Assembly (NCBI RefSeq): GCF_017348835.2
Contig: NZ_CP071375.1
DNA length: 64,000 nucleotides
Source of the DNA: Escherichia coli
GTDB lineage: Bacteria > Pseudomonadota > Gammaproteobacteria > Enterobacterales > Enterobacteriaceae
Strand: one strand, 5' to 3'
The notes beneath the pieces were generated by a model. The model did not search any database and was not told where the DNA came from. It worked only from the letters and a program-made list of their open reading frames with translations. Position 1 is the stretch's first letter; every line of letters begins with the position of its first letter. Below are positions 1 through 9,996 of this stretch, one piece after another. A program made the translations under genes and the position numbers.

Positions 1-1749
1 TACGCTTAACGGCTCCCACGGTTTGAGAGTCATCCATGCGGTCATTGTCTGCGTTGGCAGATCGGTTATCTTGCCGATGTCTTTGCGTTTGGCGTCAGCG
101 TGGATCAGGGCGTAGCTCAATCCTACATCCAGTATATTGCTGATTTTCCCCTTAATACCGGCATCCAGACCGCTGTAATCCACCGTGCCGCTGTTCTGAT
201 TTTGAATGGTATCGGCATCAATATTGTGCGAGAGGATGGCATCACTCACCCGGTTATAGTAAACGCTGACCTCAAATCCCCAGTCGCGCGTGAAGGCACC
301 ATTCCAGGTTAAATCCACCCCGCGAGCGCGTTCCGGCTTGAGCTGCGGGTTAACAATCGCTATCTGGTTATACGCAGGTTTGGATGTGGTATAGCGTTCT
401 TTCAGCGTCGGAAAGCGTGTGCGGTCATAGTACGAAAGCGCCAGAGTGTCTTCATTGGCAAAGTGGTATTTCCCCATCACCTGCCAGTTAAAAGCTGACT
501 GATTGTTGTCGTCATAATGGGTGATGCTGCCATCTTTCTCATGTTTTTTCGCTTCTACGCTATCGCGCCAGTCATAGCTGATTCCAGCCACGACATCGAC
601 ATTATCGGCAGCAGCCCATTGATATTCACTGGCGAGCGACCAGGTACGATCTTCATAGCGATCGTAAGCGGCGTGCGGCGCACCTTTTTCCCGGTGTACG
701 TCATCTTTCCAGTTAACGGCAAACGACAGCAGATCGTTTTCACGCACATCGGCTGCCAGTTGTAATCCGGCACCGTCGCTGTAATCGGAATAATGGCTGT
801 AGCTGCCTTTTTTATTTTTCAAATCAGCCAGCGAGTTGTACATCATCAGCGTATTTTCAAAGGTGTCGCGATACAGCCGACTTTTCAGGGTAAAACGATC
901 GTTTAGTTGGGTCGTTCCCTGATAATAAAAACTTTCTTTGTCATACTCTGGCCACTGCCAGTAGCGTGATTTTTGACCACTATTTCCGCTGTATGGCGGG
1001 TTATCTTTTTCACCATCCTGCTTAATGTAAGTCAGTGTGTATTCATCGTTTTCACGTGGTGTAAATCCGAGCTTCACAATGCCGCGTTTATCATCAGCCG
1101 ATGAATTAATCATCTTGCCGTGGTTGCCTGCAATATCATTATTTACACCATGCGGCAGGCCGAGAAAATCCTGCTTTAGCTGGCTACCGCTGACTTGCAA
1201 ATACCCCAGATCGCTGCTGGCGGCAAATGAAGCATGCATATCGTAGGCATTGTCCTGGCTACGGCTCCATCCCTGGCGATATCCCAGACTTGCTTCCAGA
1301 GGTTTTGTTGGCTTCTGGGTGGTGATATTAATGGCTCCGCCCATCTGATTAGGCCCCTGAAGCAGCGACGAATACCCTTTGGAAACTTCGACTGCCCCCA
1401 GATTGTTGGTCAGAATCCGCGCCAGATCGAGGTTGCCGTCATAGGGAACATAAATGGGCACACCGTCGAAATAGACCGGCACCTGCCGACTATCAAAGCC
1501 ACGAACTTTTACCTGTTCTTCGTTGCGGCTGCCTGACTTTTGCAGCACCACGCCGGGGACGACACTTAATGCCTGAGCGACATTCTGTTTATCCAGGGCC
1601 TTCATGGTGGGTTGATCGAGAACGGTGGTCGTCGTCGATGATACCGGACTGGACCATACGGTCAGCGAGTCGCTCTCCTGAGCCGCTACGGCCTGCTGGG
1701 TAAAGGCAAGTGATAATGCTGTGCAGAGATAATGTTTTTTGAGTCTCAT
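1..1749 (-). CDS. TonB-dependent outer-membrane receptor (3' end beyond window start)
   Basis: Manual minus-strand translation from ATG at 1747-1749 reads MRLKKHYLCTALSLAFTQQAVAAQESDSLTVWSS... with no stop for 583 codons to position 1. Signal peptide, TonB-box-like DSLTVWS and plug-domain-like motifs (VRGFDSRQVPVYFDGVPI) are present. Absent from ORF track because there is no stop in the window. Confidence 0.75.
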   Translation of the reverse strand, partial: MRLKKHYLCTALSLAFTQQAVAAQESDSLTVWSSPVSSTTTTVLDQPTMKALDKQNVAQALSVVPGVVLQKSGSRNEEQVKVRGFDSRQVPVYFDGVPIYVPYDGNLDLARILTNNLGAVEVSKGYSSLLQGPNQMGGAINITTQKPTKPLEASLGYRQGWSRSQDNAYDMHASFAASSDLGYLQVSGSQLKQDFLGLPHGVNNDIAGNHGKMINSSADDKRGIVKLGFTPRENDEYTLTYIKQDGEKDNPPYSGNSGQKSRYWQWPEYDKESFYYQGTTQLNDRFTLKSRLYRDTFENTLMMYNSLADLKNKKGSYSHYSDYSDGAGLQLAADVRENDLLSFAVNWKDDVHREKGAPHAAYDRYEDRTWSLASEYQWAAADNVDVVAGISYDWRDSVEAKKHEKDGSITHYDDNNQSAFNWQVMGKYHFANEDTLALSYYDRTRFPTLKERYTTSKPAYNQIAIVNPQLKPERARGVDLTWNGAFTRDWGFEVSVYYNRVSDAILSHNIDADTIQNQNSGTVDYSGLDAGIKGKISNILDVGLSYALIHADAKRKDIGKITDLPTQTMTAWMTLKPWEPLSV

Positions 1750-1774
1750 AGAATAAATTCCGTTTAACAAAGAA

Positions 1775-2629
1775 TTAAATAGAGGCTGCGGGTTGCAGAC
1801 TGACTTTAATGTCAGCCGGTGCCGCGTAATAAGGCGCGGAGGTAATAAAGAGGCGAATGCCGCAGTCGAGGTAATTTTTGAGTGTCGTCAGATTAATTCC
1901 GCCGGTCAGAGCCAGCGTGCAGTGGGGAGCCAGCGACGGCGCTATTTGCGCAATTTCAGTTGCCTGTTGCGGACTAAATTTGTCGAGCTGAAGTACGTCT
2001 GGTTGCGCGCGTAACGCGGCGATTGCCTCTTTCGGCGTGTCGGCTTCAACAACAATTTTCTTCTCGGGTGCGTGGCGACGTAACTGATTGATTGCGCCTG
2101 ACCAGTCCTGATTGTCATGAAGAAAATGGCGGTGGTTGGCAAACAATAATATGGTTTCCGCACATCCGGCACGATGAATCAGTCCTCCGGCAGCCAGAAT
2201 TGCCTGCGAGGCCAGTAAGCGGGTGCCCGGAATTGCTTTTCGGGTGCAGGCGATATTGCCATCAGGATAACGTTCACGAAGTAACGCCAGCATTTGAGCG
2301 AGATAATCAGAAACACCGCAACTCCACTCCAGCACATTCTGGACTGCCTTCCATCCCTGATGAAGTGCTGCGGCATTACCCTGCGCACGGATTAGCCGTT
2401 GACCCGCGTTCGCTTGTGAACCGTCGCTGACCGCGTCCTCAATAGTTAATCCCAGCGTAGTTAACATCTTACACGCGATAGAAACGCCGCTGACGCAGCC
2501 GCCCTGACGGAGAAAAAACTCTATATAGCCATGCTGGTGTCCAATATTTAATGCTCTCGTGGTCAGGTCACCGCCCTGGATATCTTCCAGAAGTAACGCA
2601 TCGATTTGTGCCTGAGAAAGGAAAATCAT
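1775..2629 (-). CDS. ModD-like protein (quinolinate/nicotinate-nucleotide phosphoribosyltransferase paralog)
   Basis: 284 aa ORF; N-terminus MIFLSQAQIDALLLEDIQGGDLTTRAL resembles NadC/ModD family; start overlaps upstream gene stop (ATGA). Confidence 0.65.
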   Translation of the reverse strand: MIFLSQAQIDALLLEDIQGGDLTTRALNIGHQHGYIEFFLRQGGCVSGVSIACKMLTTLGLTIEDAVSDGSQANAGQRLIRAQGNAAALHQGWKAVQNVLEWSCGVSDYLAQMLALLRERYPDGNIACTRKAIPGTRLLASQAILAAGGLIHRAGCAETILLFANHRHFLHDNQDWSGAINQLRRHAPEKKIVVEADTPKEAIAALRAQPDVLQLDKFSPQQATEIAQIAPSLAPHCTLALTGGINLTTLKNYLDCGIRLFITSAPYYAAPADIKVSLQPAASI

Positions 2630-3438
2630 CGCAGTGCCTCCTGCGGTACGCTATCCCACCAGATGAGCGCCCAGTCGCGGCTGGCAGGGGCGAGGGCACG
2701 AGCATCTTGTTGTTGATACCAGCGATATAACCGCTCACGCTCATCGTCGTTAAGCGCGCCAAGACTCCAGCTGACGTTCTGCTCAAAACGTTCCCAGGTG
2801 CTGTTATCCTGTTGGCAATTTTGTCCACGGATAAAATCAACGTGGGCATAAATTCCCATCTGATACAGGACGTTGAGCGCAAAGATATAGTTGGGTAATT
2901 CGATCACTTCCCGACCAGCCGCCCGCTGAATGGCTGGAGAGACGAACGAGGTGCTGACCAGATGAGTCGTATAGACGCGAAGCCGTGCCTGATTATTCAG
3001 TTTGCTCATTGCCTGGCGCATATCAGCCACCAGAGTGGAGCGGGAAGCCACGGCAATATCGCAGCGTGGCAGGTCACTCCAGTCCTCTTCCCAGGCGCGC
3101 TGGATCCAGTGGACATTGTCTGCCTTCAGCGCGGCGGCGCGACGGGCGGCAACGTTCAGCATCCCCTGACTGTAATCAACGCCATAAATCGTCGTGAGTT
3201 TGTCAGCCAGCGCCAGCGATACGGTACCCGGTCCGCAGCCCATATCGAATAAGGTCTGAGCGCCTTGCAGGTCAATTTTAGAGATCAGTTGTTGCAGGTA
3301 GCTGTCCGTTGGCGAGGCGCAATTTTCCGCCATTTTCTCCGCCCGTTGATCCCAGTGATCGGGCGTTTTTTCTGTGCGGTGAGCCAGTTTGAGTTGCTGC
3401 AGATAAAGGTCTGCAAAATCAATATCATCAATGAGCAT
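2626..3438 (-). CDS. class I SAM-dependent methyltransferase
   Basis: 270 aa ORF with motif I LFDMGCGPGTVSLALA and downstream acidic motif YGVDYS. Confidence 0.7.
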   Translation of the reverse strand: MLIDDIDFADLYLQQLKLAHRTEKTPDHWDQRAEKMAENCASPTDSYLQQLISKIDLQGAQTLFDMGCGPGTVSLALADKLTTIYGVDYSQGMLNVAARRAAALKADNVHWIQRAWEEDWSDLPRCDIAVASRSTLVADMRQAMSKLNNQARLRVYTTHLVSTSFVSPAIQRAAGREVIELPNYIFALNVLYQMGIYAHVDFIRGQNCQQDNSTWERFEQNVSWSLGALNDDERERLYRWYQQQDARALAPASRDWALIWWDSVPQEALR

Positions 3439-3447
3439 GATTGTTCC

Positions 3448-4206
3448 TTAGCGGCTAATTGCAGAGAGGTGATGATGAATTTGGTCGGCAGAAACCCGAT
3501 ACAGGGCCGCCAGTTTGTTCGTTGTTAACTGTTCGGTCGGTAAGCCTTGTGTTACTCGTCCATCTGGCTCTACCTGGATAATGCTGTCGGCAATGGCGTT
3601 GGCATGGAGCGGATGGTGAGTCGACATTAACATTGTCATGCCGTTATTTTTGAGCTGCGCCAGCGTGTCCAGTAGTTGGATCTGATGACCGAAATCGAGG
3701 CTGGAGTCAGGCTCATCCAGTAACAACAAGCGCGGTTGCTGGACGAGTGCACGGGCGATTAAAGCCAGCTGACGTTCACCGCCGCTAAGCGTATTCCAGC
3801 GTCGTGCCGCCAGATGCAAAATACCCAGCTTTTCCAGTTGCTCCGTGGCTTTCAGGCGTTCTTGCTTACCGGGAACGGAAAAAGCGCCTATGGTGGGGGC
3901 CAGGCCCATCAACACCATATCCAGCAAACTAAAAGCAAAAATACCGTCGTGCGCCTGCGGCACCCAGGCAATAGCCTGCGCGCGCTGGCGATGGCTGAGT
4001 GTCTGCACAGGGAGGCTATCCAGTAAGACCTCGCCTTTTAATAACGGTATAACGCCAAGAATGGAGCGCATGAGTGTGGTTTTGCCGCAACCATTGGCTC
4101 CTAACAGACAACAAATTGTTCCTTGCGACAGGGTGAAGGACACGTCGCGTAGCACCGGATGGCGGGAGTAACCCAGAGACGCATGACGGACGGCAAGCAA
4201 AGTCAC
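3448..4206 (-). CDS. ABC transporter ATP-binding protein (metal-chelate type importer)
   Basis: Walker A GANGCGKTT, ABC signature LSGGERQ, Walker B LLLDEP. ORF track start at 4344 gives an N-terminal extension overlapping the permease; GTG at 4204-4206 overlaps permease stop (GTGA) and is the more likely start. Confidence 0.85.
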   Translation of the reverse strand: MTLLAVRHASLGYSRHPVLRDVSFTLSQGTICCLLGANGCGKTTLMRSILGVIPLLKGEVLLDSLPVQTLSHRQRAQAIAWVPQAHDGIFAFSLLDMVLMGLAPTIGAFSVPGKQERLKATEQLEKLGILHLAARRWNTLSGGERQLALIARALVQQPRLLLLDEPDSSLDFGHQIQLLDTLAQLKNNGMTMLMSTHHPLHANAIADSIIQVEPDGRVTQGLPTEQLTTNKLAALYRVSADQIHHHLSAISR

Positions 4207-5183
4207 TGGCGACCTCCGCGTAACAACAAAAGCAGGAAAAACGGTGCGCCAACAAAAGCGGTCAGAATGCCAAGTGGGATTTCTGTTGTTCCAATGCTGC
4301 GTGCCAGCGTATCGGTAAGCAGGAGCAGAATCGCGCCAGTACACATTGCCATGGGCAACAGCTGCTGATGGTTATGACCGGTCAACAAGCGGGCAATGTG
4401 CGGAACGACCAGGCCGACCCAACCAATTATGCCCGCTATTGCTACCGAACTGGCGGTGATTAGTGTGGCGCAGACAATCAATCCAAAGCGCAGACGCGTC
4501 ACGTTCAGTCCCAGCGAACGGGCTTCGTCGTCGGAAAGCGTGAGTAAATTCATGCGCCAGCGGAGAAAAAACAGGGGCAAGGAGCCTATGAGAATGATCG
4601 GTGCAGCATAACAGAGATCGCGTAAGGTCACGGTAGACAGTCCCCCCAGCAACCAGAAGGTAATTGACGGTAACTGGGTGTAAGGATCGGCCAGCGTTTT
4701 AATTAGCGATATCCCCGCTCCGCACAACGTTCCTAACGCAATGCCTACCAGCACCAGGGTTAAGATCGGATCGTGGCGGGTCACCCGACGCGTAATCAAC
4801 CAGACGCCCGCGACCACCATCAGCCCGCCGCAAAATGCGTACAGCTGGATGTAAACAATGGATAATCCCCACAGAATTGCCGTGCAGGCACCAAGTCCGG
4901 CACCGGCGGAGACGCCTAAAATATCCGGTGAAACTAAGGGATTACGCAATATTCCCTGATAGGTGGTTCCGGCTCCTGCCAGCGCCGCGCCCAGTAACAG
5001 CGCAGCAAGAATACGCGGCACGCGGATTTGCCAGAAGACAATTTGTTCCTGCACAGGAACATTTTCTTGACGAAGAATTAGCGCCAGCAGTTGCTGCATA
5101 TCGAGATGATAAGCCCCACTTACGGCGGCAAAAGTGATACTGATAGCTGCCAGCAGCAAAATACATCCGTTTGCGATTCTCAT
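4203..5183 (-). CDS. FecCD-family ABC permease
   Basis: 326 aa highly hydrophobic ORF with multi-TM pattern typical of FecD/BtuC permeases; start overlaps upstream gene stop. Confidence 0.8.
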   Translation of the reverse strand: MRIANGCILLLAAISITFAAVSGAYHLDMQQLLALILRQENVPVQEQIVFWQIRVPRILAALLLGAALAGAGTTYQGILRNPLVSPDILGVSAGAGLGACTAILWGLSIVYIQLYAFCGGLMVVAGVWLITRRVTRHDPILTLVLVGIALGTLCGAGISLIKTLADPYTQLPSITFWLLGGLSTVTLRDLCYAAPIILIGSLPLFFLRWRMNLLTLSDDEARSLGLNVTRLRFGLIVCATLITASSVAIAGIIGWVGLVVPHIARLLTGHNHQQLLPMAMCTGAILLLLTDTLARSIGTTEIPLGILTAFVGAPFFLLLLLRGGRQ

Positions 5184-6205
5184 TAGCTCGCCACCAATTT
5201 TTGATAGTCGGCGTCACTGAGTGAACAATGCCAGAACAGTTGGGCGTAATGCTGCATGTCACTTTTAAACTGGCGATTGATGGCGGGATCCAGCCAGGCG
5301 TGAAGTCTGCGTAATCCCAGAAGACGGTTGATTCCCGGCGGGGCATCCAGCCAGCCAAAGGGCAAGCCACTTAAAAATAAGATGCGTTGTTCCGCAACGG
5401 CTTTCACGCCCTGCCAGAGAGGATCACGACGAATAAAATCTGCAGTAACGGCCTCCTGAACCAGAATAATATCCGGCTGCCAGCGCAGGAGATTTTCCAT
5501 GGAAACCTGTGTCAGGCCGTGGCGATCGGCTATTTGCGCGACGTTGTGCAAACCTAATAATTCCGCCGCCTCGGTATGCAACGAACCCTGTAAGCCCGTT
5601 TCCAGCCCTTGAGGACCGCGCGCAGCATAAAAGCGGAGGTTAGCGGCGGGTGAGGTGGCGAATGCCTGAGCTTCACCAACGAAGCGGCTGGCGAGATTGG
5701 CTTGTTCTGCGGCGCGATGCTCTTCGCCTAACGTTTTGCCAAGCGTTGTTAACTGTTCTGCTGATTGCTCCAGTTTCCCGTTAAGCAATAACCAGGGTAT
5801 TTGTGTCTGTTCGCTAACCTGCCGTGCCTGGGAGATCCAGGTTTCATCCGTATTGCCGCAATCAACGACCAAATCGGGATGTAACGCCATAAGCCCTTCC
5901 AGCGAGAGTGTGCTGGCGCGCCCGGCGAGTCGTCCCAGCCTGGGTAACTGGCGAATGTGCTCTGACAATGGAATTAATGCCTGACGGGCAAAATCAAAAG
6001 AGGAAAAACCGACCATTTTTTCTGGCGCGACAGCCAGCAATAGCAAATCGGCGGGCGCACCTGCGCTGACGATGCGTGTAATGTTTTGGGCTTCGGGAAG
6101 CGTCAGTGAGGCCCAGAAATTGACTGATTGTGCAAAGGACGGCAGATGATGCAGGAACAATGTTGACGCAAGAATCTGTGTAAACCTCCGTCTGGTTAGT
6201 GACAT
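5183..6205 (-). CDS. periplasmic substrate-binding protein (FecB/BtuF-like), possible Tat-type signal
   Basis: 340 aa ORF; N-terminus MSLTRRRFTQILASTLFLHHLPSFAQ has RR motif followed by hydrophobic stretch and AxA-like cleavage site; first gene of minus-strand operon. Confidence 0.75.
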   Translation of the reverse strand: MSLTRRRFTQILASTLFLHHLPSFAQSVNFWASLTLPEAQNITRIVSAGAPADLLLLAVAPEKMVGFSSFDFARQALIPLSEHIRQLPRLGRLAGRASTLSLEGLMALHPDLVVDCGNTDETWISQARQVSEQTQIPWLLLNGKLEQSAEQLTTLGKTLGEEHRAAEQANLASRFVGEAQAFATSPAANLRFYAARGPQGLETGLQGSLHTEAAELLGLHNVAQIADRHGLTQVSMENLLRWQPDIILVQEAVTADFIRRDPLWQGVKAVAEQRILFLSGLPFGWLDAPPGINRLLGLRRLHAWLDPAINRQFKSDMQHYAQLFWHCSLSDADYQKLVAS

Positions 6206-6480
6206 AAGTTATATCCTGATAATTAAAACCGCTATATATTTACATATATATATCGAAAAAAATCATGTTTGATGTCAAAATTTGTCTAAAGAGACAGAAT
6301 GATTTGCTTGTTGCTTAAATAACACTTTGTTCCACAAGAAAATTGTCAGGGAGAATGGCGGAGTGGCGAAAAATATAAATAGAGGTGTAATGATTAACAA
6401 ATTGATAAAATAAAATTAAAATCTTCTCTGATAAAAGAAAATAAAGGCATAGACCGTAGAATGGGGGGCATTTCGTGGCG

Positions 6481-6523
6481 AAAAAAGAGCAATGCCAATT
6501 TTATGCACATAATGGCATTGCTC
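6481..6523 (-). terminator. rho-independent terminator downstream of treA
   Basis: Inverted repeat gagcaatgcc/ggcattgctc (6487-6496, 6514-6523) followed on minus strand by T-run (6481-6486). Confidence 0.5.
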
Positions 6524-6550
6524 GATATACAGCCTCGATATACAGCAAAG

Positions 6551-8567: not shown

Positions 8568-9986
8568 TTAACCCTGACGGTTGAAACGTTGCGTTTTAAC
8601 GTCCAGCGTTAGCTTTTCTTCTGGTTGTATCGCATACAGTTTCTCACCCTGCTGGCAAATCCAGCCAATCCCCAGTTCACGGGCGATCAGGGCGCTGTGG
8701 GATACCGGACTTCCGGCGCTAAGGCAGATACCTTTTACAACCGCCGGATCCAGTTGCAGTACTGTGGAAGGATAAATGTTCTCCGCCAGTAGAATAGTTG
8801 GCGAGTTAAACTGCGGGAGTTCTTCTTTCGTTTGGGTCAGGTGGACCAGGGCGCGATGCAGAAGATCGTCCACATCAATATAGCGAGCTTGTAGATATTC
8901 ATCATCCAGTTGCTGGTATTGCTGGCTAAGTTCTTTAAGAACTTGCTGCCAGGCATATTCTGCCGTGCAATGTTCGTGCTGAAGGAGTTCGCTTGCCGCC
9001 GCCAGCAGTTCCGGATCATCTAACAGTGTATGGTGACCAGAAAAGATTGCGGCAATATCGTCAAGCCCGCTGGCTTCTGCTTTCGCTGTTAACGTCATCA
9101 GATCTAATAACGTGAAGTCAATGGCCTGGCGTAATCGTTCTTGTTCTTCTTCCACGGTCAGGGTTGATTTGGCCTGTACCGTACATAAAACCGGTTGATA
9201 ATAAAAGGCTTTACCCGAAACAGGCGGAACGGGACGCAGAGTAGGTGGAGCAACTTCCTCCGTTTCACCAAAGTTATCTTCAGCCAGCTGACGGAAAGCG
9301 ATCAGTGCCTCTTCAGCTTCTGGCCCTTTCGCAATCAGGCGCAGCGTATCGTTATAGCGAACTTGTAATAACGCAATCTGGTTAATACTCTCCGGTGTGA
9401 CGCATTTGCCGTTTTTCTCCAACAACATATCGGCATTAAATGTCGATAAGGTATAAACCAGCCGGGAGGCTGGACGTACATGCAGGCCGTTACGGTTCTT
9501 TATGACCACCGCCAGAGAACGGGCTTCTTCATCGTACGGAGGACATGTGTCAGAGATTTCAGTGTCGGAGGACGGTAAACCCAGTTGTTCACGTTTGGCT
9601 TCCAGCGCATGCATGGCGTCAAAGATAACTTTGTCGATATCCGCCCCCGAGGCCGCGCTGACCGTTGCTGCCAGTGTACCTTCGACCAACGGCGCAGCAC
9701 ACAAACGTACTTTTGCGGCGATCTCGGGAGCCAGCAATTCCAGCGCAGTTTCAGCACTCAATAATGCGCTACCCATATCCATCATGACCAGCACATGGTC
9801 GGCATCAGCAACAGATTCGATGGCCTCCATCACTTTGACGGCATCGGTACCAATGGGATTTTGTGGATCGTCAATTCCCGCGGCAATGGCGATTTTACAA
9901 CTATCACTCATTAACATCTGACGGGCTAATTCACCGACACCTTCTCCCAGTCGGCTGCTATGTGAAACTATGACCAGGTTTACCAT
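8568..9986 (-). CDS. dhaM: dihydroxyacetone kinase phosphotransferase subunit (PTS EI/HPr/EIIA-like)
   Basis: Translation MVNLVIVSHSSRLGEGVGELARQ... matches DhaM; ORF track start at 9992 adds 2 aa. Confidence 0.93.
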   Translation of the reverse strand: MVNLVIVSHSSRLGEGVGELARQMLMSDSCKIAIAAGIDDPQNPIGTDAVKVMEAIESVADADHVLVMMDMGSALLSAETALELLAPEIAAKVRLCAAPLVEGTLAATVSAASGADIDKVIFDAMHALEAKREQLGLPSSDTEISDTCPPYDEEARSLAVVIKNRNGLHVRPASRLVYTLSTFNADMLLEKNGKCVTPESINQIALLQVRYNDTLRLIAKGPEAEEALIAFRQLAEDNFGETEEVAPPTLRPVPPVSGKAFYYQPVLCTVQAKSTLTVEEEQERLRQAIDFTLLDLMTLTAKAEASGLDDIAAIFSGHHTLLDDPELLAAASELLQHEHCTAEYAWQQVLKELSQQYQQLDDEYLQARYIDVDDLLHRALVHLTQTKEELPQFNSPTILLAENIYPSTVLQLDPAVVKGICLSAGSPVSHSALIARELGIGWICQQGEKLYAIQPEEKLTLDVKTQRFNRQG

Positions 9987-9996
9987 CACCAATTCC

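Follow-up and report, generated by a model that had tools for sequence, protein, structure and literature searches.

A six-gene cassette headed by a binding-protein gene

The window analysed here, a 64,000 nt stretch of an Escherichia coli chromosome, spans the ymgE–treA–dha region and contains, on the minus strand at positions 1–6205, a cassette in the order substrate-binding protein, FecCD permease, ABC ATPase, SAM methyltransferase, ModD and TonB-dependent receptor. The first gene (5183–6205), which adjoins treA and has identical coordinates in RefSeq, encodes a protein of 340 aa that was assigned by profile search to Pfam PF01497 (Peripla_BP_2; E-value 6.5e-17), the family of cluster A or class III fold. 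Its stop codon is overlapped by the start of the gene for the FecCD-family ABC permease (4203–5183, minus strand; Pfam PF01032, E-value 7e-89, and RefSeq), which is followed by that for the ABC transporter ATP-binding protein (3448–4206, minus strand, with the RefSeq start). For the latter, the longest ORF (3448–4344) opens with a GTG codon at 4344, which would give an overlap of 141 nt with the permease gene; the RefSeq start at 4206 leaves a 4 nt overlap and is a better fit to the homologs. Further members of the operon are a class I SAM-dependent methyltransferase (2626–3438, minus strand; profile and RefSeq) and ModD, of the quinolinate phosphoribosyltransferase family (1775–2629, minus strand; TIGR01334, E-value 1.8e-151, and RefSeq). 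The last gene, encoding the TonB-dependent receptor (1–1749, minus strand), has its 3′ end beyond the window start and was placed using the RefSeq annotation of strain PE164 (offset 4001).

The window is 100 % identical to strain PE164 across the query stretch (positions 5000–6550), which is present in ∼40 % of the complete E. coli genomes (2148 of 5426). Beyond E. coli, the six-gene order is shared by over 50 species (loci L003–L069), which belong to Enterobacterales, Morganellaceae, Shewanella, Wohlfahrtiimonas and some Neisseriaceae and Alcaligenaceae. A literature search with the N-terminal sequence of the binding protein and with the operon (ModD, TonB-dependent receptor and methyltransferase) returned nothing relevant. 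In the extraintestinal pathogenic (ExPEC) strain PCN033, the permease gene of the cassette (L082, 16472–17452) is a pseudogene according to its annotation, which records an internal stop, and the transporter may be inactive there. Separately, a 'modD' deletion mutant that the strain table of the paper on this strain (PMC7549933) counts among its Tat-substrate mutants looks, from Tables 2 and 3 of that paper, like a misprint for mdoD and does not appear to concern the ModD of the cassette. We also observed that dhaM of the identical strain PE164 (8568–9992, minus strand) is a RefSeq pseudogene with an internal stop, while the window contains an uninterrupted ORF of 474 codons.

The gap between the binding-protein gene and treA (6206–6550) comprises 345 nt with a G+C content of 32 %, and a hairpin is located at ∼6468–6543 (minus strand), just downstream of treA. 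Within this gap the best Fur box candidate matched at 13 of 19 positions, no better than shuffled sequences, no riboswitch or Rfam match above threshold was found, and promoter-like hexamers were weak ones only. A Shine–Dalgarno sequence, AGGA (6214–6217, minus strand), lies 8 nt 5′ of the ATG of the binding-protein gene. An in-frame TAA at 6209–6211, two codons 5′ of this ATG, excludes a longer N-terminus, and the ATG is the sole usable start, in agreement with RefSeq. An alternative start that would remove the paired arginines described below was rejected, as the upstream stop blocks any extension and the sole downstream candidate, a TTG at L16, leaves a hydrophobic stretch that is too short. 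Translation of 5183–6205 (minus strand) thus begins MSLTRRRFTQILASTLFLHHLPSFAQSV...

An AlphaFold2 model of the binding protein (pLDDT 92) has the class III fold, with two lobes and a long connecting helix. In this model residues 5–20 form a separate helix, residues 21–30 are of low confidence and the globular domain starts at around residue 30. The best PDB matches in a Foldseek search were the uncharacterised 4pag, which shares the class III binding-protein fold (E-value 5.8e-23, TM 0.77–0.81) at 26 % identity, and the molybdate/tungstate-binding Haemophilus protein MolA (HI1472; PDB 3psa/3psh), which shares it (E-value 1e-16) at low identity (∼20 %); YiuA, BhuT and BtuF were also found. The profile match and the fold, together with the neighbouring FecCD permease and ABC ATPase, place the protein in the PF01497 family. 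A ModD gene is linked in some loci, as in some of Haemophilus. The identification of the present system as Haemophilus MolABC was rejected, since MolA is just ∼20 % identical.

Anatomy of the signal peptide and its likeness to reference signals

From the translation, the structural model and conservation, we predict a signal peptide of residues 1–25 (MSLTRRRFTQILASTLFLHHLPSFA; 6131–6205, minus strand), with the mature protein starting at Q26. The n-region (M1–R7) runs into a twin-arginine motif, T4-R5-R6-R7-F8-T9-Q10 (6176–6196, minus strand), in which the conserved pair R5R6 occupies nt 6188–6193 and R7 the variable 'x' position; the three arginines are encoded by AGA CGG AGG (6193–6185). TRRRFTQ fits the consensus S/T-R-R-x-F-L-K at five of seven positions, with T in place of L and Q in place of K. 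The h-region, F8–L21 (FTQILASTLFLHHL; 6143–6184, minus strand), is weakly hydrophobic (GRAVY 0.96, best 10-residue window 1.48), and is followed by a c-region, P22-S23-F24-A25 (6131–6142, minus strand), that ends in a predicted signal peptidase I site before Q26. With the −3/−1 rule applied by eye, this site has S at −3, A at −1 and P at −4. The first-pass annotation had described an N-terminal T-R-R-R-F followed by a hydrophobic core and a cleavage site, with which the translation agrees exactly, from the same start as in RefSeq.

Overall, the signal is rich in Leu, Ser, Thr and His and devoid of Gly. The E. coli allele has no basic residue (K/R) in the c-region before the cleavage site, where H19-H20 are found instead; such a residue is the usual 'Sec-avoidance' feature of Tat signals, being frequent although not obligatory (PMC5539426). 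The early mature region is likewise without basic residues. The signal measures 25 aa, whereas even the shortest of the 25 reference E. coli Tat signals has 26 (range 26–53 aa, mean 33.9); the mean for Sec signals is 22.6. No Cys occurs within residues 1–40 of the protein, and hence there is no lipobox.

In order to place these properties, we drew on two published sets: Table 2 of PMC7549933 supplied 25 Tat signal peptides of E. coli, and Table S1 of PMC5539426 its first 89 non-Tat signals (hereafter the Sec signals). The default pattern of TatP (RR.[FGAVML][LITMVF]), applied as a pattern alone, matched the binding-protein signal at residue 5 (RRRFT), and was present in 25/25 Tat and 0/89 Sec signals; among 244 probable Sec signal peptides of E. 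coli, paired arginines have been found in just five (PMC5539426). Hydrophobicity was equally distinctive. By GRAVY of the longest uncharged stretch, a measure that reproduces the published SufI value of 1.36, the query scored 0.96, vs 1.23 ± 0.24 for Tat (n = 25) and 1.84 ± 0.42 for Sec signals (n = 89), and its best 10-residue window of 1.48 compares with 1.83 ± 0.29 and 2.53 ± 0.40, respectively. On both measures it stands at the first percentile of the 89 Sec signals and within the range of the Tat signals, or towards or beyond its lower end; the strongly hydrophobic h-region of ∼10–15 residues after a K/R n-region that typifies Sec signals is thus not seen.

Scored with a position-specific matrix derived from the 25 Tat signals, the query reached 13.9 bits, compared with 16.2 ± 9.0 for the Tat signals themselves (leave-one-out) and a maximum of 1.4 for Sec signals, and with both Arg columns masked the query still ranked above 86 of the 89 Sec signals. 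Combining the base rate of paired arginines (5/244) with a hydrophobicity likelihood ratio of 8.3 in a naive-Bayes estimate gave P ∼0.98 for a Tat signal, a rough figure to be taken as an upper bound, the features being interdependent. As such, the occurrence of the RR motif in this signal exceeds chance expectation.

Curated profiles were less responsive. With the full protein or the N-terminus from E. coli as query, neither TIGR01409 nor Pfam PF10518 (TAT_signal) gave a match to the signal up to an E-value of 10. Among the controls, SufI and TorA passed TIGR01409, FhuD was missed by both models and TorA was missed by Pfam; given the low sensitivity that these controls reveal, the miss counts as weak negative evidence only. 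A homolog with 45 % identity to the query does pass Pfam TAT_signal (25.4 bits vs a cut-off of 22.7).

Among published lists, the genome-wide TatP-based one for ExPEC strain PCN033 omits the binding protein and contains only substrates known from K-12 (PMC7549933); PCN033 encodes an identical signal peptide, and the binding protein is intact there. A Tat study in C. freundii screened fitness genes alone. In Proteus mirabilis, PMI2675 is predicted by TatP 'with clear motif', with RRQFL at residue 5 and a cleavage site following residue 27 (S7 Table, PMC6497324). The P. mirabilis ortholog in our set (L038; MAIHRRQFLSYLTTLAALSALPRCARA) is 46 % identical to the E. coli protein and belongs to a six-gene operon as in E. 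coli, and to judge by the matching motif, position and annotation it is apparently PMI2675. Compared with the query, PMI2675 has an Arg in the c-region and the canonical RRQFL; its Tat status is itself a prediction.

The closest precedent for a Tat signal on such a binding protein is FhuD of E. coli and Salmonella (signal MSGLPLISRRRLLTAMALSPLLWQMNTAHA), which is listed as a Tat substrate in E. coli (PMC7549933, PMC5539426) and in Salmonella. Like the query, FhuD is a cluster A/Peripla_BP_2 binding protein of a FecCD-type ABC importer, has an S-R-R-R motif (SRRRLL) and an h-region of very low hydrophobicity (GRAVY 0.78, query 0.96), and goes undetected by TIGR01409 and Pfam TAT_signal. The two proteins differ, however, in that no meaningful sequence kinship exists beyond the fold (FhuD family models miss the query, the ferrichrome model giving an E-value of 0.09), in the length of the signal (30 vs 25 aa) and in the operon, which is fhuACDB as opposed to the order binding protein–permease–ATPase–methyltransferase–ModD–receptor. 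SufI (FtsP; MSLSRRQFIQASGIALCAGAVPLKASA) has a nearly identical n-region (MSL[ST]RRxFxQ, with RR at residues 5–6) and a signal of similar length (27 vs 25 aa). Unlike the Gly-free query, it has an h-region rich in Gly and Ala as well as a c-region Lys, and it passes TIGR01409 (21.8 bits), which the query fails; the passenger proteins are unrelated. ABC binding proteins with a predicted Tat signal are also common among other bacteria.

Conservation of the paired arginines and their loss in Sec-type orthologs

In an alignment of 23 sequences with 36–85 % identity, R5 and R6 were invariant, and were the sole invariant residues among the first 48 positions (before G49); P22 and A25, which would lie at −4 and −1 of the cleavage site, were ≥ 90 % conserved. 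Near and distant homologs almost all start M-x-[LIV]-[ST]-R-R-x-[FL], such that the F/L at +2 past the pair is also conserved, while position 7 is occupied by M, T, L, V, K, S, Q or R. We further scanned one genome per species, obtaining 80 loci with 78 callable N-termini, and found the pair kept in 58 of the 78 (59 with a longer ORF for one locus, L036). Across these loci it is encoded by 16 different pairs of Arg codons, and the selection therefore acts on the amino acids. A K/R in the c-region was present in 18/34 RR-bearing orthologs. Homologs below ∼35 % identity have mostly Lys-rich or lipoprotein signals.

The Citrobacter orthologs (Citrobacter and related loci, L005–L009, L015, L024 and L030) carry TRRMFAQ, in which RR and Phe are kept, and have an Arg in the c-region (LLLRHLPAFAQ); this motif fails the default TatP pattern because of the Ala at its fifth position. 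Some gene callers place the start of the Citrobacter ortholog at a Met past RR, whereby the motif is lost from the annotated protein (P0053 and P0055).

The pair is absent from Morganella morganii (MTMRLNRLCSGFLFCCALLLSFPALSA), where the gene is full-length and the six-gene operon identical in order, as well as from Aggregatibacter, Haemophilus and Glaesserella (MKKW... or MKKF...), Necropsobacter and two Shewanella species (KKR). Within the family, the best 10-residue hydrophobicity window was 2.57 ± 0.24 for RR-less vs 1.93 ± 0.32 for RR-bearing signals (Mann–Whitney p = 4.6e-5), values that fall together with the means of the Sec and Tat signals of E. coli, respectively. The Sec-type orthologs (Morganella and the Pasteurellaceae with MKKW...) have in common with the query the mature protein family, at 40–47 % identity, but lack RR and have best windows of 2.4–2.8, as opposed to 1.48. 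This pairing of RR loss with a gain in hydrophobicity is predicted by a switch of export pathway, and not by a chance occurrence of RR. Moreover, because full-length orthologs in Morganella and Pasteurellaceae bear Sec-type signals, the mature protein is evidently exportable in an unfolded state, and the presence of such orthologs in the six-gene operon argues against an obligatory insertion of cofactor or ligand in the cytoplasm.

Probable route of export and its implications

E. coli possesses tatABC and tatE. From the motif, composition, conservation and covariation of the signal, we infer that residues 1–25 are probably a genuine Tat signal and that export is mainly Tat-dependent, a reading to which we assign a probability of roughly 0.72; as a class, the signal is a probable Tat signal that may be promiscuous between Tat and Sec. 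The Tat-like signal proposed in the first-pass annotation is thus upheld by the motif, the hydrophobicity, the matrix score, the conservation among orthologs and the TatP-positive PMI2675, whilst the consequence drawn there, that Tat export would imply loading of a ligand or cofactor in the cytoplasm, does not follow: Tat substrates without a cofactor exist, such as SufI, AmiA/AmiC and the binding protein FhuD, as do the Sec-type orthologs described above.

Under the Tat reading, the precursor would fold in the cytoplasm and be bound by TatBC via T-R-R-x-F, R5R6 being the putative pair recognised by TatC. TatA would carry the folded protein across the inner membrane, driven by the proton-motive force, and signal peptidase I would cut after A25 (S-F-A25), so that the mature protein, starting at Q26, would be set free in the periplasm. 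Its role there would be to serve the neighbouring FecCD-type ABC importer, which would be fed by the TonB-dependent receptor. Nothing in the evidence calls for cytoplasmic loading of cofactor or ligand; most likely, Tat is used because the signal lacks the hydrophobicity needed for efficient targeting to Sec, because the protein folds fast, as is assumed for FhuD, or for both reasons. It is very improbable that the binding protein exits already folded and enclosing a small molecule that the ModD and SAM methyltransferase of the operon have made, i.e. that a protein-bound chelator or cofactor is exported, although if true this would amount to more than the placement of an empty receptor in the periplasm.

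The alternative that fares best, though still an unlikely one, is a promiscuous signal used by both Tat and Sec, with a substantial share of the protein normally exported unfolded via Sec. Of the Tat signals of E. coli that have been tested, over half engage Sec when given a Sec-compatible passenger (PMC5539426), and the Sec-type orthologs show the mature domain to be of this kind; the E. coli allele is, furthermore, short and lacks both the c-region 'Sec-avoidance' residue and basic residues in the early mature region. In disagreement with this, an h-region at the first percentile of Sec signals speaks against efficient capture by SecA or SRP, and RR is strictly conserved although K would be equally good for Sec.

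That the signal is an ordinary Sec signal, the n-region arginines of which make the resemblance to Tat coincidental, we consider distinctly improbable. Such a view could draw on the lack of a match to the curated Tat models, the absence from the PCN033 list, the Sec-like length, and the presence of RR in a few Sec signals, as well as on Sec-exported proteins of B. subtilis. It does not readily accommodate, however, an RR that stays invariant across orthologs despite changes of Arg codon, the conserved F/L at +2, a hydrophobicity far below that of Sec signals, the joint loss of RR and gain of hydrophobicity within the family, or a matrix score far above every Sec signal. Finally, we rejected as extremely improbable that the signal is of the lipoprotein type or stays uncleaved as an anchor tethering the protein to the membrane: many family members below 35 % identity, mostly Gram-positive-like, do have lipobox signals ending in Cys, but the first 40 residues here contain none, the conserved P22 and A25 form a site of the signal peptidase I type, and the weakly hydrophobic core has neither the length nor the apolar character of a stable anchor.

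The present case changes no principle, since a binding protein with a Tat signal is familiar from FhuD and many more are predicted in other bacteria. If confirmed, it would nevertheless add a strain-variable Tat substrate to E. coli, one that is missing from the usual K-12-derived substrate lists and that matters when tat-mutant phenotypes in pathogenic strains are to be explained. Beyond E. coli, the family, with its RR-bearing, weakly hydrophobic signals on the one hand and its RR-less, strongly hydrophobic signals on the other, offers a natural comparison that could help to show why a class III binding protein would favour Tat.
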